DNA of 55,477 nucleotides from Actinomycetota bacterium (GCA_039933515.1 JBDTNY010000117.1:1-55477); one strand, 5' to 3'; numbered from the stretch's first letter, positions 1 to 47,070 are shown. A program made the numbers and translations. Notes: generated from the sequence alone by a model not told the origin.

Positions 1-48
1 AAGGGCAAGGGCGACATGAACACCTATATCCTCGTCTCCAGGGGATGA
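1..48 (+). CDS. 3' end of a class III adenylate/guanylate cyclase-domain protein (partial, runs off window start)
   Basis: Frame 1 reads KGKGDMNTYILVSRG then TGA (46-48). KGKG-x-M-x-TY-x-L is the typical C-terminal strand of class III cyclase catalytic domains. Only 15 codons are visible. Confidence 0.45.
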   Translation, partial: KGKGDMNTYILVSRG

Positions 49-62
49 GCTGCGCCCAGCGA

Positions 63-254
63 GGGATCGACTCGGAGCGGCCGCCTGACTGTCTCCACCT
101 CCGGCACCACGCGGCAAGAAGCCAGGCTGCTTCAGGAGCATCCCGCAAGCCGAGATGGCGTTACCGAGCCGGGACCCACCTCCACTCGCTACACTTCAAC
201 GCGCTGCTGATGACCTCGGTGGCGATCTCTGCCAGGTTTTCTACCGGCCCGGGC
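63..254 (+). repeat. Direct repeat copy A (~190 bp), homologous to 4591-4780
   Basis: Hand alignment: 164-254 vs 4690-4780 is ungapped with 8 mismatches in 91 nt. 63-163 is homologous (gggatc..agcggccgcctgact..) but carries indels. Similarity ends at gggc (254), the point where copy B meets tRNA-Phe. Confidence 0.85.
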
Positions 255-403
255 AAGTCGGGGCGGTAGAAATCCCCAACCCAGCAGGTCAGCATGTTGC
301 CCGTGACACCGTGGTAACGGATTCGGCCAGTCTGGTAACGGCTTAGCCTCGGAGCGGGCTCCCGACACCGTGCCGCCACGGAACGCCAAAGAGCGCCACA
401 CAT

Positions 404-825
404 CTAGACATCGGCTCCCTTCCTTCCCGCCGTGGCCGCCTCGGCCCACGCGGCGTCCACGGCGATACTTGCGGCCTCGTCGAGCGCCGCCACCAGGTCC
501 CTGAACCCGGCCGTCAACGTGAAGCCGCGTCCGCGAGCAAGGGGGCCGAGGGCTGCCGGTCGCCATCGACCAGAACCATCGACCCGGAGCCGTCCCGGCA
601 TCGACCGTCAGCGCATCTCGAACGGGCGTGCCTTGGTCGTCGATACAAGGGCATCCGACTTGTCCGGATGCACTCGGACAAGCAGGCCGCCCTGCCCGCT
701 CGCGGCGATGGCCATGTTGCCGCCTATCAGGAAGGCCAGCCCGCCGAACATCTTCTTCTCCGTCAGCTTGGGTTCGCGGGCGATCAGCCTCGTACTCGAT
801 CCGGGAGATCTTCGTCGTACGCCAT
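404..825 (-). pseudogene. TfoX N-terminal-domain family gene, apparently disrupted (one frameshift, one in-frame TGA)
   Basis: ATG at 825 opens MAYDEDLPDRVRG then stops at 784-786. Shifting one frame continues LIAREPKLTEKKMFGGLAFLIGGNMAIAASGQGGLLVRVHPDKSDALVSTTKARPFEMR, then TGA at 608-610, then in the same frame RSMPGRLRVDGSG... to stop at 404. MAYDE-L-RVR and KKMFGG-AF---G-M motifs are typical of TfoX_N proteins. Confidence 0.55.
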
Positions 826-828
826 ACC

Positions 829-945
829 TCAGTCCTCGTCGTCGTCCGGCTTCTCGTCTGGCGGTTGAGCCTCCTCCTCACGCTCCTCGACCGTCTCCTC
901 CTCGATCGGGTCCTCCGTGTTCTCGAGTGGGATGGGGCGCCGCAT
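829..945 (-). CDS. Small highly acidic protein (38 aa), hypothetical
   Basis: AAGGAGG lies 5 nt upstream of ATG(945). The ORF reads MRRPIPLENTEDPIEEETVEEREEEAQPPDEKPDDDED. Its stop is 3 nt before the TfoX-like ATG. No recognisable family. Confidence 0.35.
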   Translation of the reverse strand: MRRPIPLENTEDPIEEETVEEREEEAQPPDEKPDDDED

Positions 946-1057
946 GGGGACCTCCTTGATCGGTGGGCCCTCCGAGAGGGCGCTCGTCGCAGCCCGGGCG
1001 CAACTCGGATGCTCGTCGAGGTGACGTGATCCCTCGGAGTCCACCCCGAACCGTGGC

Positions 1058-1063
1058 TATGAT
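1058..1063 (+). promoter_or_regulatory. -10 box TATGAT positioned for a leaderless transcript of the cyclase-STAND gene
   Basis: TATGAT (TANNNT) is followed by 5 nt (gcccc) and ATG at 1069. No Shine-Dalgarno is present. No clear -35. Confidence 0.4.
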
Positions 1064-1068
1064 GCCCC

Positions 1069-4000
1069 ATGGCCTGCCGTCGTTGCGGCTCCGAGGTTCC
1101 CGAGGGCGCGCGGTTCTGCCCAACCTGTGGTGCTGAGCAGGCCGATTCCGTCCCGCAAGAGGAGCGGAAGGTCGTCTCAATCCTGTTCGTGGACATCGTG
1201 GGGTCGACCGCGCACGCCGACGGGGCCGATCCCGAGGACGTCCGCGAGCGGAACCAGGTCTACTACCACGAGATGCGCGAGCGCATCGAGCGCTACGGCG
1301 GCGGCGTGGAAAAGTACATCGGAGACGCCGTCATGGCGGTCTTCGGCGCTCCGCTCGCACGCAGCGACGACGCCGAGCGTTCCGTGCGGGCTGCCCTCAG
1401 CGCGCTCCAGGGCGTCCGCGAGCTGAACGAGCGCCACATCGGGCTCGACCTCGAGATCCGCGCGGCCGTCTGCAGTGGCGAAGCCATGGTCGCGATCAAC
1501 GCCGCTCCCGGGGACGCGCTCGCGACCGGGGACGTCGTGAACACCGCCTCTCGCCTTCAGTCCGCCGCGCCGATCGGCCGGGTGGTCGTCGGCGAGGACA
1601 CCTACCAGCTCACCAAGCACGCGTTCACCTTCGAGAAGCTCGCTCCGGTCGTCGCCAAGGGCAAGCGCGACACCGTCGCCGCCTGGCTCGTGGGGGAGCC
1701 CCTCGTCTCATCCGCCAACCGGCCGACCTCGCGTACGCCGCTCGTGGGGCGGGATCGCGAGGTCTCGATCGTCCGCACGGTGTGGGAGCGCGCGATGAAC
1801 GCGAGCCGGCCCCACCTCGTCACCGCGCTGGGGCCGGCCGGCATCGGGAAGACGCGCCTCGCCCTCGAGGTCGCCGCCGAGATCGAGGCGCAGGGCGGCC
1901 GGGCCCTCTGGGGACGCAGCCTCCCGTACGAGGAGCAGTCACCGTATCGGGCCGCCGGCCAGATACTGCGCTTGGCCGCCGGCATCTACGAGAACGACTC
2001 GGCGGACACGGCACGCGAGAAGCTCGCAATCCTCGTGCGCTCGCTCTGCCCGGACCCCGAGGCTCCCGAGACCACGCGCTACCTCTCCCTGCTACTCGGC
2101 CTCGGGCTCGACGAGCCTGCCAGCGAGGTGGTCCACCTCCAGTTCGCCATGCGGCGGTTCGTCGAGGTCCTCTCGCAGCGCGAGCCGCTGCTGCTGGTGT
2201 TCGAGGACATCCACTGGGCCGACGACGCGATGCTCGACCTGATCGATTACCTCGTCACGCACGTGCACGACCATCGGATCCTGTTCCTCGCGCTCGCGCG
2301 GCCGGAGTTTCTGGAGGCGCGGCCGAACTGGGGCGCCGGGATGGCCGGCACGATGATGCTTCCGCTGGAGCCGCTGACGCGAATCGAGGCCTCGGAGGTG
2401 ATCGGCTCGCTGCTCTCCGCGGCGAACGCGATCACGGTGGAACGCGTCGTCGCCACCGCGGGCGGCAACCCTCTGTTCATCGAGGAGCTCGCGGCCTCGC
2501 TGGCCGACGACCCTGCGTCGCAGGAGCTGCCCGGCACGGTGCGCGCCGCGATCTCGGCGCGGATCGACGCGCTGCCGACGGAGAGCCGAAGCACGCTGCT
2601 GAGCGCCAGCGTGATCGGGCAGACGTTCTGGCGCGGCGTGCTGGCCGACGTCGGCGAGACGCCCGACGTGGACGGCGCCCTCGAGGCGCTGGAGGCACGC
2701 GGCCTTGTGCAGCGCCGGTCGACGAGCCAGGTCGAGGGCGACGTCGAGTTCGGGTTCAAACACGTGCTGATCCGCGACACGGCATACGGGACGCTGCCTC
2801 GCGCGGCGCGGCGCAAGATGCACGCCGCGATCGCCGCCCACCTCGAGCGATCGGTGTCGGACTCGACCGAGATCGGCTGGATCCTGGCGCACCACTGGCG
2901 CGAGGCCGGCGAGCCGGTGAAGGCGATCGTCTACCTGCTGCGGGCCGCGGAGCGCACGGCCGACGCGCTCGCCGTGGAGGAGACGTGGGACCTCTATACG
3001 CGCGCGCTCGACCTCGCGGGCCCCGACGACGAGCGGCGCGCGATCCGGCTGAAGCGCGGTCTCGCGATGGCCAAGCTCGAGAACTTCTCGCGCGCGAAGG
3101 GCGAGCTGGAGGAGCTCGTTGCCGACCTCGACGGCTCGGAGCTGATCGAGGCGTTGATCGCCGAGGGGCACAGCACGCTCTGGACCGAGGACAGCGAGAA
3201 GACGATGGAGATCGCGACACGCGCGGTGGAGCTCGCGGAGAGCGCGAACGACGCGGAGCTCCTGCCGCCCGCGCAGTCGCTGCTGAGCAGTGCCTACGGC
3301 ATGCGGGGCGATGCCGGCGATCTGGAGCGGGCGGACGAGCTGGGCGTGCGGGCGTTCGCGGCGTGGGTGCCGGGCACGCGTCGGGAGTGGCTGGCCGAGC
3401 ACCACCACATGCAGGCGAACCACCGGTATTGGATGGGCCGCTACGATGGGGCTCTCGAGCAATCCCAGCTCGCGAAGGAGTCCGCGGGCGGCGAGCCGCA
3501 CAGCGCGGAGTTCCTGCTTCGGGGCGCGGGCATGCAGGGGCTGGCGTTCGCGGGGCTCGGTCGCTACGAGGAGGCGATCAGCGCGGTGGAGACGGCGATC
3601 TCGATCGCGAGGTCGATCGGCCGTCCGATCGCAGTCGTCACGAACTACTCGACGATGCCGCTGCGAGACATCTTCGCCGCCGAGGAGGCGCACACGCGCA
3701 GCTCGGCGATCGCCGACAGCCTCGGGCCGTCGGACTTCAACATGCCGTGGATCAACGCGCGCGCCGACGTGATCGCCGCGGACATGATGCTCGGCGAGCT
3801 CGGCCGCGTGGAGGCGACGTTCCCCCAGGCGTGGGAGGACGCAGTGAACAGCCTCGCATGGGAGCGCTGGCTCGTGAGCGGGCGCCTCGCGTCGGTCCGC
3901 GCGGAGCTGGCACTCGCGATGAAACAGCCCGAGGACGCGATCACGTGGGCGCGCCGGGCCCAGGAGATGGCGCGCGGCGTCGGCCGGAAGAAGTACGAGG

Positions 4001-4299
4001 TGATTTCGACGATGACCCTCGGCGCGGCGCTGACGTTGTCGGGCCTCGCCGAGGACGCGCGGACCGAGCTGCGGACCGCAGTCGCGCAGGCGGAGGCGCT
4101 GGGTTCGCCGCTCTACCGCTGGCAGACGCTGGCGGCGCTCGCCGAGGCCGTCCGGAAGATCGAGGGCGTCGACGCCGCGGACGCGCTCCTTGCCGAGGCC
4201 GCCGCGATCATCCGAGAGGTCATCGCCGGCCTCTCGCAACAACACGGCGTCGGATACATCGCGGCGCCCCAGGTGGCCGCGGTCCTCGCCGCCGTCTGA
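1069..4299 (+). CDS. Zinc-ribbon / class III adenylate-guanylate cyclase / STAND (AAA) NTPase / TPR-like repeat protein, 1076 aa
   Basis: N-terminal CxxC-x10-CxxC (MACRRCGSEVPEGARFCPTCG). Cyclase motifs FVDIVGST, EKYIGDAVMAVFG and GDVVNTASRL are present. Walker A is GPAGIGKT and Walker B is LLLVFEDIHWAD. About 600 aa of C-terminal helical repeats follow, with no C-terminal LuxR-type HTH. Confidence 0.9.
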   Translation: MACRRCGSEVPEGARFCPTCGAEQADSVPQEERKVVSILFVDIVGSTAHADGADPEDVRERNQVYYHEMRERIERYGGGVEKYIGDAVMAVFGAPLARSDDAERSVRAALSALQGVRELNERHIGLDLEIRAAVCSGEAMVAINAAPGDALATGDVVNTASRLQSAAPIGRVVVGEDTYQLTKHAFTFEKLAPVVAKGKRDTVAAWLVGEPLVSSANRPTSRTPLVGRDREVSIVRTVWERAMNASRPHLVTALGPAGIGKTRLALEVAAEIEAQGGRALWGRSLPYEEQSPYRAAGQILRLAAGIYENDSADTAREKLAILVRSLCPDPEAPETTRYLSLLLGLGLDEPASEVVHLQFAMRRFVEVLSQREPLLLVFEDIHWADDAMLDLIDYLVTHVHDHRILFLALARPEFLEARPNWGAGMAGTMMLPLEPLTRIEASEVIGSLLSAANAITVERVVATAGGNPLFIEELAASLADDPASQELPGTVRAAISARIDALPTESRSTLLSASVIGQTFWRGVLADVGETPDVDGALEALEARGLVQRRSTSQVEGDVEFGFKHVLIRDTAYGTLPRAARRKMHAAIAAHLERSVSDSTEIGWILAHHWREAGEPVKAIVYLLRAAERTADALAVEETWDLYTRALDLAGPDDERRAIRLKRGLAMAKLENFSRAKGELEELVADLDGSELIEALIAEGHSTLWTEDSEKTMEIATRAVELAESANDAELLPPAQSLLSSAYGMRGDAGDLERADELGVRAFAAWVPGTRREWLAEHHHMQANHRYWMGRYDGALEQSQLAKESAGGEPHSAEFLLRGAGMQGLAFAGLGRYEEAISAVETAISIARSIGRPIAVVTNYSTMPLRDIFAAEEAHTRSSAIADSLGPSDFNMPWINARADVIAADMMLGELGRVEATFPQAWEDAVNSLAWERWLVSGRLASVRAELALAMKQPEDAITWARRAQEMARGVGRKKYEVISTMTLGAALTLSGLAEDARTELRTAVAQAEALGSPLYRWQTLAALAEAVRKIEGVDAADALLAEAAAIIREVIAGLSQQHGVGYIAAPQVAAVLAAV

Positions 4300-4613
4300 T
4301 GGGCATCCCCGAGATCCGATACGCGCGCAGCGGCGAGGTGAGCATCGCCTACCAGGTGTTCGGCGAGGGCCGCGCCGACGTCGTCTTCGTCCGCGGGTTC
4401 ACCGGCGACCTGCTCTCGAGCTGGGAGCAGCCGCTGCTGGTCCGCCACATGCTGGGGCTCAACCGCGCCCTCGAGGACACTCTGTTCCTCGGCCGCGCTC
4501 ACAGCCTCGGATGGCGCCGTCTGCGAGTCGAGATGCTCGGCCGGGCGCTGATGGTGAACGCCATGACGATGGCCCGCCACAGAGCCGCCGGGGATCTCGA
4601 AGCGGCCGCCTGA
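4299..4613 (+). pseudogene. Truncated alpha/beta-hydrolase-like ORF (LipJ-type N-terminus only, 104 aa)
   Basis: ATG overlaps the cyclase stop (TGATG). The first ~50 aa (IRYARSGEVSIAYQVFGEGRADVVFVRGFTGDLLSSWEQPLL) look like the N-terminus of alpha/beta hydrolases fused to cyclases. The ORF ends after 104 aa with no GxSxG elbow, and its last ~10 codons lie inside repeat copy B. Confidence 0.5.
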
Positions 4614-4780
4614 CTCGCTCCACCCTCGGCACCACCCCGGCAAGGATCAGGGCTGCCTCAAACACACCCCCGGGGCCAAGATGGCGTTACCGAGGCCAGA
4701 CCCACCTCCACTCGCTACACTTCAACGCGCTGGTGGTGACCTCGGTAGCGATTTCTGCCAGGTTCTCTACCGGCCCGGGC
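4591..4780 (+). repeat. Direct repeat copy B (~190 bp), homologous to 63-254, abutting tRNA-Phe
   Basis: See copy A. The 3' end overlaps the first 3 nt of tRNA-Phe. Confidence 0.85.
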
Positions 4781-4850
4781 CAGGTAGCTCAGTTGGCAGA
4801 GCACGCGGCTGAAAACCGCGGTGTCGGCAGTTCGATTCTGCCCCTGGCCA
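4778..4850 (+). tRNA. tRNA-Phe (anticodon GAA)
   Basis: Cloverleaf folded by hand: acceptor GGCCAGG/CCTGGCC, D arm GCTC-AGTTGGCA-GAGC, anticodon arm CGCGG-CTGAAAA-CCGCG, variable loop GTGTC, T arm GGCAG-TTCGATT-CTGCC, discriminator A. 73 nt; CCA is not fully encoded (ACCG). Confidence 0.95.
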
Positions 4851-4856
4851 CCGGAT

Positions 4857-4907: not shown

Positions 4908-5741
4908 CTAGTTCATCGCCTCGCGGCTGCGGATCTCGGCCCAATGGGTCAGGACGCCCTGGTAGATGTCGGCGCTGTGCACGTACTCCTCGCGCTCCAG
5001 CGCCTCGAGGGCCTCATGGATCTCGCGCGCGCTGTGGTCGTCGTCCAGGTCGTCCCAGCGCATGACGTCGCACAAGCTGCCGTAGTCGAGCTCCAGGATC
5101 GACGACCGGTCGAAGGCCGCCATCCACTGGTGCAGGTCAACGATGAGGTCGCTGATCGGCCCCAGCTCCGAGCGCCGCAGGGGCCCGACCGCCTGCTCGG
5201 CGCGCCGCATCGCGCGCCGCGTGCTGGTTCGGTAGCGCATGCGGGTCCGTCCCAGCTCGTCCTCGCCGAGCCAGCGCTCCTCGTCACGGAAGAGCACGAA
5301 CCAGCGGATCGGCACGTGCCAGGGGCTCTGGTGGCAGAACGCCACCGAGTGCGGATCGCGCCGGCGAAGCTTCGCGAGGTCCTTCGCGGCTCGCTTGCCG
5401 TCGGCCTTGGGCACGAAGTGATCCCACAGCTCCATCGGCTCGGCGTCACGGAACGAGAGCATCGCCGCGAGCACCCGCATCCGCACCCGCCAGGGGCTCA
5501 CATACATGCGCCCGTCGATCATGCGCACTTCGGCGTGCTCCCCGTCGGCGGGCGCGAGCACCCCGAGCTTGCCTACGGTGTGGTGATCGGCGTACCGGTG
5601 CCGGCGGGAGCCCGCGCGCGCTCCGTCGACGAGGTAGCGCTCCCAATGGAGCCGCTCGTCGCGCTCAAACGCGTCGAGGGGCTGGAACACGCGGAGATAG
5701 GCGCTCGGGATCACGCTGTCGAGTCTAGCTGGCGCCGCCAT
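4908..5741 (-). CDS. Conserved hypothetical protein (277 aa)
   Basis: Long ORF with protein-like composition (SAYLRVFQPLDAFERDERLHWERYL...). Divergent from the dehydrogenase operon. I do not recognise the family. Confidence 0.7.
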   Translation of the reverse strand: MAAPARLDSVIPSAYLRVFQPLDAFERDERLHWERYLVDGARAGSRRHRYADHHTVGKLGVLAPADGEHAEVRMIDGRMYVSPWRVRMRVLAAMLSFRDAEPMELWDHFVPKADGKRAAKDLAKLRRRDPHSVAFCHQSPWHVPIRWFVLFRDEERWLGEDELGRTRMRYRTSTRRAMRRAEQAVGPLRRSELGPISDLIVDLHQWMAAFDRSSILELDYGSLCDVMRWDDLDDDHSAREIHEALEALEREEYVHSADIYQGVLTHWAEIRSREAMN

Positions 5742-43525: not shown

Positions 43526-45340
43526 TCAGCCGGCGAGCTCCCCGACCGCGCGGTGCGCCTGGTCGATCGCCACGTGAGCGAACGGCGACCAGGCGGCGTC
43601 CGCGCTCGCGAAGGCTACGTTGCCCGCCCTCGATCTGGCCTCGAGGTAGGACCGAGGATCCTCGGCGCCCGGACCGAGCAGCGGGTCGCCACCGTACGAG
43701 TAACCGTGACCCCACCGATTCACGGTGATGCCCGCGATGTCCCGGTCAGCGTCGAACCCGCCCGGTCCGAGCATGCGGGTCAGCTCGTCGCGGATCCGCG
43801 ATTCGAAATCGTCGAAGGTCATGTCGAAGAGCTGACGGCGGCCCGCACGGAAGCGTTGTCGGGCCGTGCCGCCGCCGGGCTGCGCAGGCACGTGAACCAG
43901 GTGCAGCATCATCGGTTCGTCGGGCGTGCGCGGGCACCGGTACGAGCCCAGGCTCACGGGGTAATCGAGCTTGAGCCGCGAGAAGAACCCCATCGGATTC
44001 GTGATCTCGTGGACGCCGAGCCGGACCCAAGGGTGCCAGTCACGAACGGCCACCTTCACGTAGACGAGCGGCGCCTTCGTGTTCTTCGACAGGGCCTGCA
44101 GCTGGCGCTTCGGCAGCTCGGGCATGATCGAGGGGATCATCATGTGGTAGCCGGCGAGCACGGCACGCGCGGCGCGTACCACCGACAGCTCGCCGTTCCG
44201 CACGTACCCGACGTCGACACCGCCGTCGCGGTTGCGAACGTGGACGGCCGTGCTCTCGAGTCGCAGCCGTGTGGATGAGCCGATGTCGTCGAGCCTGCCG
44301 TAGTCGAACGGCGCGGTCACGATGTCTTCCATCGTCGTGCCCGGCGCTGCGTCCGGGATCATCGAGCGCACCATCAGGCGAGCCAGCGACGCGTTCCCGT
44401 CGGGGAAGTGGTAGATGTAAGGTTCGTCCATCTCGGCCGCCACGGCCGGATCCACCGGGAGCCCGAGTCCTGCGAACCCCGGGTAGCCCGTCTCGTACGC
44501 GTCGTAGGCCGTGATGCGGTCGATGCCCAGCGCGAAGAAGTCGTGCGAGCGACCCTGGAACGTATCGGCCGCTCGGTCGTCGAGTCCCCAGGAGCGTTGG
44601 ATGAAATCGCGGTAGCTCGTGGTCTGCAGCAGCACGACCGCCTCGTCCCGGGAGAGCTCGCCTAACGGGTTGCGGGACGACGTGAAGAGGTCGACGAGCG
44701 TTGCCTTCGCGGAGGCCGACAGCGGGAAGTCCGCGATGAACGCCGCGGCCGGACGCTCGTTCATCCGGTCGCGCGCGATGTCGTCGGCGACCATCCGCAT
44801 CGGGTCGCCGGAGACCAGGACGTCGCGACCGAACGCCTCCCGGGAAAAGAAGACCGCGCGCGACAGCCCGAGCCCCGGGTACAGCTCGCGATCGAACGCC
44901 GTTCGGAACCGGCCGACATCGACCCCGAGCGAGGCGAGTAGCCCCTTCGCGACGTCGCTGTAGAGCCCCTCGGGAGACTGGAGGGCCTCGCTGCCGCCGT
45001 AGCCGATCAACAGGCGGTCGCCTACCCAGAGCTCGTTCCGCTTCGCGTGCCCACCGAAATCATCGTGATTGTCCAAGAGCAGGATCGTCGCGTCGGGCTC
45101 GCGTTGCCGCCAGAACCACGCCGCGGCGAGTCCGCTGATCCCCGCTCCCACCACCACGAGATCGACCTGTTCTCCGATCGGCACACCGGCGATATCGAAC
45201 GTCTGCCCGTCGCGTATCGCGTGCGCGACGTCGAACGACCCGGGGTGGCTCCCGCGCATCCCGTGCCGTGCCGGCGGATACGTCGAGCCGTCCCGGTACT
45301 CCAGCCGCGTCACACCGTCCTTCACCGCATCTCCTTCCAT
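43526..45340 (-). CDS. NAD(P)/FAD-dependent oxidoreductase, spermidine-dehydrogenase/amine-oxidase-like
   Basis: Rossmann motif DLVVVGAGISGLAAAWF. About 600 aa. Start set at MEGDAVKDG; the longer track ORF has an Arg-rich, non-protein-like N-terminus. Confidence 0.7.
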   Translation of the reverse strand: MEGDAVKDGVTRLEYRDGSTYPPARHGMRGSHPGSFDVAHAIRDGQTFDIAGVPIGEQVDLVVVGAGISGLAAAWFWRQREPDATILLLDNHDDFGGHAKRNELWVGDRLLIGYGGSEALQSPEGLYSDVAKGLLASLGVDVGRFRTAFDRELYPGLGLSRAVFFSREAFGRDVLVSGDPMRMVADDIARDRMNERPAAAFIADFPLSASAKATLVDLFTSSRNPLGELSRDEAVVLLQTTSYRDFIQRSWGLDDRAADTFQGRSHDFFALGIDRITAYDAYETGYPGFAGLGLPVDPAVAAEMDEPYIYHFPDGNASLARLMVRSMIPDAAPGTTMEDIVTAPFDYGRLDDIGSSTRLRLESTAVHVRNRDGGVDVGYVRNGELSVVRAARAVLAGYHMMIPSIMPELPKRQLQALSKNTKAPLVYVKVAVRDWHPWVRLGVHEITNPMGFFSRLKLDYPVSLGSYRCPRTPDEPMMLHLVHVPAQPGGGTARQRFRAGRRQLFDMTFDDFESRIRDELTRMLGPGGFDADRDIAGITVNRWGHGYSYGGDPLLGPGAEDPRSYLEARSRAGNVAFASADAAWSPFAHVAIDQAHRAVGELAG

Positions 45341-45399
45341 CGAGCTCCCGTCGGCGCCGCTTGTCGTCGACACGGCGGACGGCGGGCGGCGTACGTGGC

Positions 45400-47070
45400 A
45401 TGCTGCGCGCCATGCGCGACGGCGGCAAGTTGCGAACCTCGATCGGCGCGCTCGCCGAGGCGTTCCGATCACCGGATCTTCGCCGTGTCGAGATCGCCTG
45501 GGCGCTCTCGGTAACGGCGGACTGGATCGCGATCATCGTGCTCGCCGTCTTCGCGTTCGACGCGGGCGGCCCGCTCGCGGTCGGCCTCCTCGGCCTGATC
45601 CGGATGGTGCCCGCAGCGCTCGCCGCGCCCTTCTTCGCGATGCCCGCCGACCGCTACCCGCGGCAACGGGTGATGGCGGTCGTCGAGGGAGCCCGCGCGC
45701 TCCTGATCGTCTCGGCGGGCGTCGCGGCCTGGCTCAGCCTTCCCGTGGCCGTCATCTACGCGCTCGTCATGGTGGCGGCCGTCGTCTCGAGCGCCCTGCG
45801 CTCCACCCAGTACGCGCTCCTGCCCTCGCTCGCCCGCTCGCCGCACGAGCTCGTCGCCGCCAACGTCGGGCTGGCGACAATCGAGGGCCTCGGCATGCTG
45901 GCCGGACCGGTGCTCGCCGGGCTCTTCCTGGCTCTCGCGGGAACCGGCACGCTCCTGGTCGCCGCGGGCGCCGCGTTCGGGGTGGCGGCACTCGTGCTGC
46001 TCGGGGTCGAAAGCGCAGGTTTCGCACTCCCCCAGCCGACGGGCCGCCGTCGGCCCATCGAGGAGGCGCTCGCTGGATTCCGCACGCTGGCGACGATGCC
46101 GAAGCCGCGCCTAGTGGTCGAGCTGTTCAGCGCGCAGACGATCGTGCGGGGCCTGCTCGGGGTGCTGCTGGTGATCGCGTCGTTCGATCTGCTCGGGATG
46201 GGCGAGTCGGGACTCGGGTATCTCTCTGCCGCGATCGGAGCGGGAGGGATGATCGGCGTGTTCGTGACGCTGTCGCTCGTGGGGCGCCCGCACATGGCGG
46301 TGCCCTTCGGTCTCGCGCTGCTGGCATGGGGCGTACCGATCGCCCTGATCCCCGTGTTGCCGTTCCCGCTCATGGCCCTCGTGCTGATGGCGGTCGTCGG
46401 CGTCGGCAACAGCGTCGGCGACGTCGCCGGCATGACCACCCTGCAGCGGATCGTGCCCGATGTGGTGCTCGCCCGGGTGCTTGGGGTGCTCGACGGGCTG
46501 GTGCTGGGCGCCGTCGGGCTCGGCGGCATCCTCGCTCCCGGGCTCGTCGCCTGGCTCGGCCCTCGTGGAGCCTTCTACGCGACGGGGGCGCTGCTCCCCG
46601 CCCTGGTGGCGGTCACGTGGCCGGCGCTCCGCAAGCTCGATCGGGACACCGTGGTCCCCGAGCGCGAGCTGGCGCTCCTGCGATCGATCGCGATATTCGC
46701 CCCGCTCGACATCCCCACGGTCGACCACTTGGCCCAACAGCTGCACCCCCGCATGGTGGCGGCAGGGGCCACGATTATGACGCAGGGCGATGTCGGCGAC
46801 CGCTTCTACATCATCGATCGAGGCGCGGTGGAGGTCTCGGCCGACGGCCGGCACGTCGCCGACCTCGGCCCGGGCGATTTCTTCGGCGAGATCGCGCTGC
46901 TCCGCGACGTGCCGCGCACCGCGACCGTCACCGCGACCCAGGAGACCCGCCTCCTCAGCCTCGAGCGCGACCAGTTCCTGACGGCCGTCACGGGGTTCGC
47001 GTACAGCCACCTCGAGGTCGACCGGATCACGGTGCAGCGGCTGAACGACCTCGAGCGAGGGAACGGGTAG
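45400..47070 (+). CDS. MFS transporter fused to a C-terminal cyclic-nucleotide-binding domain
   Basis: About 12 TM segments, followed by FAPLD...GDRFYIIDRGAVEV...GDFFGEIALLRDVPRTATVTA (canonical cNMP-binding phosphate-binding cassette). The start (45400 or 45412) is uncertain. Confidence 0.8.
   Translation: MLRAMRDGGKLRTSIGALAEAFRSPDLRRVEIAWALSVTADWIAIIVLAVFAFDAGGPLAVGLLGLIRMVPAALAAPFFAMPADRYPRQRVMAVVEGARALLIVSAGVAAWLSLPVAVIYALVMVAAVVSSALRSTQYALLPSLARSPHELVAANVGLATIEGLGMLAGPVLAGLFLALAGTGTLLVAAGAAFGVAALVLLGVESAGFALPQPTGRRRPIEEALAGFRTLATMPKPRLVVELFSAQTIVRGLLGVLLVIASFDLLGMGESGLGYLSAAIGAGGMIGVFVTLSLVGRPHMAVPFGLALLAWGVPIALIPVLPFPLMALVLMAVVGVGNSVGDVAGMTTLQRIVPDVVLARVLGVLDGLVLGAVGLGGILAPGLVAWLGPRGAFYATGALLPALVAVTWPALRKLDRDTVVPERELALLRSIAIFAPLDIPTVDHLAQQLHPRMVAAGATIMTQGDVGDRFYIIDRGAVEVSADGRHVADLGPGDFFGEIALLRDVPRTATVTATQETRLLSLERDQFLTAVTGFAYSHLEVDRITVQRLNDLERGNG

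Follow-up and report, generated by a model that had tools for sequence, protein, structure and literature searches.

A class III cyclase joined to a STAND switch and a TPR-like solenoid, in a repeat-bounded cassette upstream of tRNA-Phe

The DNA considered here, 55,477 nucleotides from an Actinomycetota bacterium (GCA_039933515.1 JBDTNY010000117.1:1-55477) and below called the window, has at 1069-4299 on the plus strand an uninterrupted open reading frame (ORF) of 1076 codons with an ATG start. Its product combines, from the N-terminus onwards, a zinc ribbon, a class III nucleotide cyclase, a nucleoside triphosphatase (NTPase) of the signal transduction ATPases with numerous domains (STAND) type and a long helical solenoid of the tetratricopeptide repeat (TPR) kind. 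The segment in which the gene lies is flanked by two copies of a non-coding element, here named R, the right-hand one of which directly abuts a gene for tRNA-Phe. What might such a protein do, and in what company is it found?

The gene and its product

The modules were assigned by a Pfam profile search of the 1076-amino-acid (aa) protein, and the features of the gene are as follows.

1058-1063, plus strand: TATGAT, possibly a -10 box, with 5 nt between it and the ATG (read from the sequence).
1069-4299, plus strand: the whole gene, intact; its product of 1076 aa has zinc-ribbon, class III cyclase, STAND NTPase and TPR parts (ORF listing, translation).
1075-1137, plus strand: N-terminal C4 zinc ribbon, residues 3-23, with C3, C6, C17 and C20 (Pfam Zn_Ribbon_1, E 8e-7, above cut-off).
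1156-1689, plus strand: class III nucleotide cyclase domain, residues 30-207 (Pfam Guanylate_cyc, PF00211, E 3e-18).
1738-2283, plus strand: STAND nucleotide-binding domain AAA_16, residues 224-405 (Pfam PF13191, E 6e-20).
2284-2928, plus strand: part of the STAND module with its helical, winged-helix and arm regions, residues 406-620 (GNPLF at 466-470, FKH with H565).
2929-4296, plus strand: C-terminal TPR-like alpha-solenoid sensor, residues 621-1076, without a DNA-binding domain (AlphaFold model, Foldseek, Pfam).

Conservation was assessed in a set of 63 homologues of 59-79% identity. All four zinc-ribbon cysteines are present in 59-60 of the 63, the remainder being without the N-terminus. 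The cyclase scores 66.4 bits with PF00211 against a cut-off of 21.9, covering positions 3-181 of the 183 in the profile, and has the motifs FVDIVGST (D42), EKYIGDAVM (K82, D86) and VNTASR (N158, R162); alignment to solved cyclases gives D42 and D86 a role in metal binding, N158 and R162 one in the transition state, and places K199 in the phosphate-binding KGK hairpin. For the NTPase the PF13191 score is 72.9 bits against a cut-off of 32.6, with Walker A as GPAGIGKT (K261) and Walker B as VFEDIHWAD (E379, D380). Throughout the 63 homologues D42, D86, K82, N158, R162, K199, K261, E379 and D380 are invariant, as are, in the helical and winged-helix region, G466, N467, P468, L469, F470 and H565; going by established features of STAND proteins, GNPLF is presumably the GxP motif and H565 the winged-helix His. 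Judged from its sequence, the cyclase carries the complete residue set for a symmetric, fully active homodimer.

Sequence matches of the cyclase in the Protein Data Bank (PDB) are Cya2, CyaB and Rv1625c-type cyclases (1e-13 to 1e-19). K82 is at the substrate-specifying Lys position, where it aligns with the Lys of CyaB and of the Rv1625c type, and with the Glu of the guanylate cyclase Cya2; because this adenine-specifying Lys is present, the product is most probably cyclic AMP (cAMP). At the second purine-specifying position there is Leu151, in place of the Thr of CyaB or the Asp of the Rv1625c type, on account of which specificity is uncertain and cAMP is not assured. Among 80 wider relatives this position is L in 31, M in 20, T in 15 and I in 7, and the K/T adenylate-cyclase pair, as in CyaB, is found in 15 of the 80: the subfamily of the window protein seems to have drifted to a hydrophobic residue, while the wider family keeps canonical K/T members.

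The full-length AlphaFold (AF2) model has a mean predicted local distance difference test score (pLDDT) of 75.7. Residues 590-1076 are modelled as one continuous all-helical solenoid, ~480 aa long, with pLDDT >90, the winged-helix region at 480-576 has low pLDDT, and the cyclase domain has pLDDT 26-50. That the cyclase might be degenerate, a thought to which this last range gives rise, was rejected: residues 1-229 modelled alone came out cleanly with pLDDT 82.5, and the low values of the full-length run are a modelling artefact. By Foldseek, the isolated cyclase model compares with CyaB (3R5G), Cya2 (2W01), CyaC (1WC1) and RhGC at TM 0.75-0.87, and its predicted fold matches those of the active homodimeric cyclases CyaB, Cya2 and CyaC. 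The best PDB match of the body of the protein is 6MFV (E 1e-10, 738 aligned columns), further matches being TPR superhelices; the Pfam TPR_12, TPR_1 and TPR_2 matches are weak and fall at residues ~777-849. No helix-turn-helix (HTH), GerE or Trans_reg_C domain was found by Pfam at E<=1 in the whole protein or at E<=10 in the last 176 aa, and a cryptic C-terminal HTH, sought in those 176 aa and in residues 478-644 (Pfam E<=10, AF2, Foldseek), was discarded as TPR-like matches alone were returned.

An earlier note on this DNA, made from its sequence alone, had set out the same order of zinc ribbon, cyclase, STAND NTPase and repeats, a catalytically complete-looking cyclase with the motifs quoted above, and the lack of an HTH. 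All of this stands, with profile searches and structure prediction both recovering the Guanylate_cyc, AAA_16 and TPR regions from an intact ORF. The novelty which that note implied for the architecture does not stand. A search of 5.8 billion proteins yields 7,933 homologues at E<=1e-10, the best 120 of which are ~1076 aa long with identical domain order, and the best homologues already have a JGI name, 'class 3 adenylate cyclase/tetratricopeptide (TPR) repeat protein'. The architecture is abundant and already annotated, thus not new; the family is functionally uncharacterised and the window protein is a typical, well-conserved member of it.

The same-length homologues, of 59-79% identity, come from Actinomycetota metagenome-assembled genomes. 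Relatives in species-representative genomes are from Acidimicrobiales, Gaiellaceae (Gaiellales), Solirubrobacterales, Thermoleophilia, Dormibacterota, Chloroflexi and one planctomycete, and distant copies, ~28% identical over 76-83% of the protein and annotated as adenylate/guanylate cyclase domain-containing proteins, are on megaplasmids of Sinorhizobium, Rhizobium and Cupriavidus. In its behaviour it resembles a signalling family that is scattered and rich in paralogues, and it has expanded in soil Actinomycetota. There is also a short subfamily of ~685-760 aa, with zinc ribbon, cyclase and NTPase, that ends after the arm and is without the TPR sensor; its loci, designated like the other contigs below by L numbers, include L035, L040, L049, L052, L080, L081 and L090 (Solirubrobacterales, Gaiellaceae, Dormibacterota).

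Is the sensor the variable part, as one might ask of a receptor? Identity among homologues is 56-61% in the sensor and 67-73% in the rest of the protein, which is not hypervariability, and the entire protein, sensor included, appears from these values to be under purifying selection. The C-terminal sensor is itself a small family (647 representatives at E<=1e-3 among 1.84 billion), two members of which, P0153 and P0164 (~1300 aa; 33-36% identity over 450 aa), carry Trans_reg_C and BTAD, the domains of Streptomyces antibiotic regulatory proteins (SARP), ahead of the AAA_16-TPR core. A class III cyclase is detectable in P0153, which amounts to an AfsR-like regulator with an inserted cyclase; in P0164 there is no Guanylate_cyc match at E<=1e-4. 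Sensor-sharing proteins of ~800 aa were considered as effector-swapped variants and rejected, 5 of the 6 starting in the middle of the AAA_16 profile and being truncated gene calls.

As to expression, the start at 1069 may be leaderless, to go by the position of TATGAT and the missing Shine-Dalgarno sequence ahead of the ATG, both noted by inspection; a consensus promoter scan upstream of the gene found no full sigma70-type site. GC at third codon positions (GC3) is 0.93, as in other real genes of this 70% GC window, and recent horizontal transfer, as judged by GC and GC3, was set aside since the composition is native-like.

The cassette array and its surroundings

The features that accompany the gene are these; L001 is the contig with the closest homologue.

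71-257, plus strand: R1, left copy of the 187-nt conserved element R, ~84-85% identical to 4596-4783.
258-386, plus strand: 'class 2' junction after R1, consisting of a hairpin (GGGG-CGGTAGAAAT-CCCC) and two GGTAACG direct repeats; also in L091, L093, L094 and L099.
404-825, minus strand: frameshifted TfoX_N-family pseudogene (six-frame translation).
829-945, minus strand: small, highly acidic ORF of 38 aa (MRRPIPLENTEDPIEEETVEEREEEAQPPDEKPDDDED) upstream of the TfoX pseudogene (six-frame translation; no Pfam match).
4299-4451, plus strand: N-terminal remnant, 50 codons, of an alpha/beta-hydrolase(-cyclase) gene (tblastn against the L001 hydrolase-cyclase: residues 3-52, 46% identity, E 3e-9).
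4457-4613, plus strand: 3' end of a small native ORF, X, finishing in MTMARHRAAGDLEAAA and stop, fused in frame to the hydrolase remnant (BLASTN, L095 translation).
4596-4783, plus strand: R2, right copy of R, a direct repeat of 71-257 that directly abuts tRNA-Phe.
4778-4852, plus strand: tRNA-Phe (GAA) (ARAGORN; Rfam RF00005, 69 bits).

R1 and R2 are the sole copies of R in the window. An invariant 31-mer of the element occurs in 12 metagenome contigs, in most of which R is directly upstream of tRNA-Phe, and over 11 copies its 3' 100 nt are almost invariant, with flanking genes merely ~72-75% identical. The nature of R was pursued in several ways: Rfam gave nothing at the gathering threshold or at E<=5, RNAalifold gave no covariation, a scan for a sigma70-like promoter was blank, and no ORF holds up in the two junction types alike; as identities for it, a promoter, a structured RNA and a known RNA family were all dropped.

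Both junctions recur. By BLASTN, window 4457-4851 aligns to L095, L097 and L099, and 4501-4851 to L101; the R-to-tRNA-Phe junction is also in L095-L098, L100 and L101, and in L092 it was read from the alignment, that contig ending within the tRNA with no ARAGORN call. In related contigs ORF X precedes R. The class 2 junction is recovered by BLASTN in L093, L094 and L099; its GGGG/CCCC stem is extended by compensatory changes and its loop is YGGYRGARAT, and in L091 and L093 it is just 3' of the PD40 gene of a pair encoding a PD40 protein and an extracytoplasmic function (ECF) sigma factor.

What lies between or beside the R copies differs from contig to contig. Window 1-47 is the last 15 codons (KGKGDMNTYILVSRG, then stop) of another cyclase gene, an end that is found in L092 and L099 at 94-97% nucleotide identity, where it belongs to a protein of 402 aa whose adenylate cyclase domain (Pfam E 2e-58) has the canonical K/D pair; in these two contigs the 402-aa cyclase gene is R-bounded, with or without a gene for an F420H2-dependent reductase-like protein. 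L098 has the left-edge cyclase gene, R and tRNA-Phe with nothing between. L091 has the ECF sigma factor and PD40 protein between two R copies, and the cargo of L093 is likewise ECF sigma and PD40. L095 likewise has no cassette: a histidine-kinase gene is upstream of its R, a second copy of R was not seen, and, though synteny with the window extends from 4457 over tRNA-Phe and the dehydrogenase operon beyond it, the contig is without the STAND cyclase. In the window the cargo is, in order, the TfoX_N pseudogene (whose frameshift-corrected conceptual protein scores 36.5 bits with PF04993, E 5e-9, where the cut-off is 30.1), the acidic ORF, the intact STAND cyclase gene, the hydrolase remnant and the 3' end of ORF X. 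We read window 258-4595 as a single cassette belonging to a variable array, bounded by R, that is upstream of tRNA-Phe. Set beside a tRNA-associated integrative element, for which direct repeats at a tRNA gene and a recombinase would be expected, the segment has the 187-nt repeats and the tRNA-Phe junction; the repeat is on the 5' side of the tRNA gene, and among related contigs the site is empty in some and holds other genes in others. In the window cassette and four others examined, no integrase, transposase or recombinase was found, and the notion of these R cassettes bearing their own integrase was dropped. The loci of other STAND-cyclase homologues have no R, so that its association with the STAND cyclase is local to the lineage of the window.

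The earlier note had described a repeat-flanked, decaying segment by a tRNA in which this gene is the sole functional cargo. The direct repeat and tRNA-Phe bear out the first part, the pseudogene upstream and the remnant downstream the second, and the third is essentially right, the other contents of the cassette being a pseudogene, remnants and the small acidic ORF. A 335-aa ORF at 189-1196 on the minus strand was discarded as an Arg-rich off-frame artefact with no Pfam match, and the 104-aa ORF that holds the hydrolase remnant has no Pfam match either.

Downstream of tRNA-Phe there follow an unknown ORF, a 2-oxoacid dehydrogenase E1-alpha/E1-beta/E2 operon and, beyond that, purM, purF and purL, which is to say ordinary chromosome. 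The ORF directly downstream of the tRNA (4908-5741, minus strand, 277 aa) has good coding statistics (GC3 0.92) but no Pfam match, and L091, L095 and L096 conserve the DNA of this region.

The surroundings of homologues elsewhere are of another kind each time. Against L001, BLASTN aligns the gene body at 81% and the flanks nowhere, so that synteny with the closest homologue was rejected. In the eight homologue contigs with annotation, neighbours differ case by case and are chiefly metabolic; a second copy of the same architecture is in L004 and L005, other STAND genes are near the homologues in L007 and L010, a RES domain is in L007, and an integrase with HNH/RVT is near the homologue in L005. 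A larger, though still small, sample took in 143 proteins encoded up to 5 kb from 20 further homologues; in it Guanylate_cyc (5) is the most frequent Pfam family, followed by methyltransferases and dehydrogenases. That the homologues might uniformly be core regulators in conserved housekeeping neighbourhoods does not agree with this, the neighbourhoods not being conserved.

Relatives and a proposed mechanism

The nearest characterised relatives are Rv0386, Rv1358 and Rv2488c of Mycobacterium tuberculosis (Mtb), and the nearest structure is that of PH0952/MalT. According to one account (bioRxiv 10.1101/2024.03.06.583649), Rv0386 is an active adenylate cyclase and the Mtb relatives carry a LuxR HTH. 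In common with the window protein, the Rv0386 group has an N-terminal class III cyclase (of class IIIc in the Mtb proteins), a MalT/AAA_16-type ATPase, helical repeats and a similar length (1085 aa in Rv0386); the window protein differs in having an extra N-terminal C4 zinc ribbon and no C-terminal LuxR/GerE HTH, and in a K/L substrate pair as against Q/N in the Rv0386 group, a comparison for which the Mtb proteins were taken by description only. PH0952 of Pyrococcus (6MFV) and Escherichia coli MalT share Walker A/B, an AAA_16-type nucleotide-binding oligomerisation domain, arm and TPR sensor with it at ~14% identity, and their output is a DNA-binding domain where the window protein has its N-terminal cyclase.

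Beside the SARP-STAND-TPR regulators of AfsR type there are P0153 and P0164, which have the AAA_16 core and the C-terminal sensor family in common with the window protein; the latter has its zinc ribbon where they have N-terminal Trans_reg_C and BTAD. Since these sensor relatives carry SARP domains and the Mtb proteins end in a LuxR HTH, the clade belongs among the regulatory STANDs. The best NCBIfam match is the TOMM kinase/cyclase fusion TIGR03903, residues 26-744 aligning to model positions 279-1027 at E 4e-64; however, the score of 217 bits is far short of the cut-off, 705.75, the match begins after the kinase, and neither a Ser/Thr kinase domain in the window protein nor TOMM genes nearby were found.

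It is well established that the catalytic sites of class III cyclases form across a dimer interface, and that MalT-type STANDs multimerise once inducer on the sensor permits ATP binding. An economical model follows from fusing a dimer-dependent cyclase with a multimerising STAND, and it is the one we favour, with moderate confidence: a cytoplasmic, single-polypeptide, MalT-like STAND transducer in which ligand-driven oligomerisation dimerises the cyclase and so raises the level of, probably, cAMP. Ligand gating, activation of the cyclase by oligomerisation, and the product are what we infer from the parts described. In the resting state the NTPase would hold ADP, and the arm/TPR region would keep the protein monomeric, with its cyclase inactive because class III active sites arise only across a dimer interface. 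A putative ligand, small molecule or protein, would bind the conserved C-terminal TPR solenoid; the switch would then open, with exchange of ADP for ATP and oligomerisation; this would pair the N-terminal cyclase domains so that cyclic nucleotide is made, and the messenger would act in trans on CRP-type or other proteins that bind cyclic nucleoside monophosphates (cNMPs).

Several things weigh against this proposal. The support for activity in the subfamily consists of sequence and models. The winged-helix region (480-576) and the cyclase are poorly modelled in the full-length protein, and an autoinhibited conformation is not visible. Leu or Met at the second substrate-specifying position is non-canonical. 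Genes for receptors of the messenger are not genetically linked to the cyclase-STAND gene. Finally, a variable cassette by a tRNA, clustering of paralogues, and occasional HNH, RES, integrase or STAND neighbours are also typical of accessory or conflict genes.

On the matter of receptors, the earlier note had pointed to cNMP-responsive proteins elsewhere in the window. There is one, a major facilitator superfamily (MFS) transporter with a C-terminal cNMP-binding domain (45268-47070, plus strand; cNMP_binding E 7e-21), a possible cNMP-regulated transporter to go by its domains, and it is 41 kb away from the cyclase.

Weighing the alternatives

Need the product be cAMP, and need the protein work with copies of itself? 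On one alternative view it is not a ligand-gated source of cAMP: it would make another product (cGMP or a pyrimidine cNMP), or would mainly serve other cyclases as a regulatory subunit or heterodimer partner, with STAND and TPR parts as scaffold. We consider this unlikely. As regards product, L151 is in place of the purine-contacting Asp/Thr, and most wider relatives have L, M or I there; Rv0386, as described in bioRxiv 10.1101/2024.03.06.583649, combines a non-canonical residue pair with a guanylate cyclase side activity. However, Lys82 is the adenine-type residue, and the guanylate cyclase Cya2 has Glu at that position.

As regards partnership, Guanylate_cyc heads the neighbour families (5 of 143), and genes for alpha/beta-hydrolase-cyclases (LipJ-like) lie next to STAND cyclase genes in L001 (398-1732), L004 (4007-5344) and L010 (6637-8004), the last with a 4-bp overlap between them; L022, L062 and L086 are further cases. 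The window has its own trace of this arrangement, the ATG of the hydrolase remnant overlapping the stop codon of the cyclase-STAND gene (TGATG). The cyclase domains of the hydrolase-cyclases are without the substrate Lys and catalytic Asn and look degenerate and regulatory, and the recurring adjacency raises the idea that they may heterodimerise with the STAND cyclase. Against this are the low incidence of the adjacency, merely ~8 of ~90 loci, for which the hydrolase-cyclase was rejected as a conserved operon partner, and the presence in the window protein of every residue for a symmetric active homodimer. Another neighbour, of 153 aa in L001, was rejected as a conserved partner when tblastn found it in L001 and L002 only; in L004 there is an unannotated ORF of the same size (153 aa) between the hydrolase-cyclase and STAND genes.

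Another alternative is antiviral. The earlier note had seen in the protein the sensor-switch-enzyme logic of Avs-type and other NOD-like receptor (NLR)-like proteins. The logic does fit, with PH0952 the best structural match; the Avs-like defence reading attached to it is unsupported. Like Avs and bacterial NLR-like proteins, the window protein has its effector at the N-terminus, then a STAND switch, and a repeat sensor at the C-terminus, and activation of Avs is by oligomerisation (PMC13581612). On such a reading the TPR region would sense a phage protein, the STAND would oligomerise, and a cNMP alarm would go to an effector encoded elsewhere, in the manner of Pycsar with a fused sensor. Cyclases for cNMPs are among the effector domains of predicted conflict systems in multicellular bacteria (PMC7159879; PMC8195603). 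The gene is in a variable tRNA-side cassette and is absent from the R-bearing tRNA-Phe contigs L091, L095 and L098; some homologues are near HNH/RVT/integrase genes, a RES toxin domain or other STANDs; and there are several paralogues per genome.

Several points speak against this reading. The window protein matches no Avs, AVAST, bNACHT or other STAND defence model of PADLOC at E<=1, its NTPase is of AAA_16/MalT type, and its effector would be a second-messenger synthase where Avs have a nuclease, protease or NADase. PADLOC does recognise the cyclase domain, and that domain only, with PycC models (E 2e-13), a class III-type cyclase domain being what the two have in common; the match is weaker than the generic Pfam cyclase match, PycC has no STAND/TPR fusion, Lys82 of the window protein is a purine-type residue, and Pycsar is of two genes with the effector adjacent, while no cNMP-binding, TIR or transmembrane effector adjoins the cyclase-STAND gene in the window. 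Among the 143 neighbours of the 20 homologues, PADLOC and Pfam reveal no recurrent defence or cNMP-binding effector genes: the PADLOC matches are sparse and mostly generic or from neighbouring cyclases (most often mad2, 4, and PycC, 3, the latter consistent with neighbouring cyclases; type I restriction endonuclease 1, HerA 1), and a defence-island context, for the window protein or its homologues, was accordingly rejected, in a sample small enough for a weak enrichment to escape notice. The sensor is well conserved, without diversification, the same sensor family is fused to SARP transcription-factor domains, and codon usage is native. Among 50,697 phage records none has the full architecture, phages carrying bare cyclase domains only. 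The window protein is thus NLR/Avs-like in logic, yet without the match to an Avs model or the enrichment of defence neighbours, and an antiviral role, unsupported by gene context or relatives, strikes us as improbable. The chance is slimmer still for a fuller version, in which an NLR-like immune or conflict sensor with a diffusible cyclic-nucleotide output and unlinked effectors was gained as a cassette in an undescribed R-bounded recombination hotspot.

That the protein is a LAL/AfsR-type transcription regulator with a cryptic DNA-binding element, in the zinc ribbon or the last helices, and an accessory cyclase, can be given next to no credence: relatives do have LuxR (Mtb) or SARP DNA-binding domains and the N-terminal C4 zinc ribbon is conserved, but even at E<=10 no HTH, GerE or Trans_reg_C appears, the C-terminus is confidently modelled as a TPR-like solenoid for which Foldseek gives TPR proteins only, and a 21-residue zinc ribbon of Zn_Ribbon_1 type is a generic module.

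With the ligand-gated STAND cyclase as the preferred reading, what does it amount to? The location of the gene, in a variable array with an almost invariant non-coding R next to tRNA-Phe, is more unusual than the gene itself. Few multidomain cyclases of soil bacteria are as abundant as the cyclase-STAND-TPR proteins, among which we know of no member without a DNA-binding domain that has a known ligand, product or role. If the proposal is true, gating of a dimerisation-dependent cyclase by STAND oligomerisation would link two well-studied signalling principles, and STAND-gated cyclases would explain part of the large cAMP-signalling repertoire of Actinomycetota.

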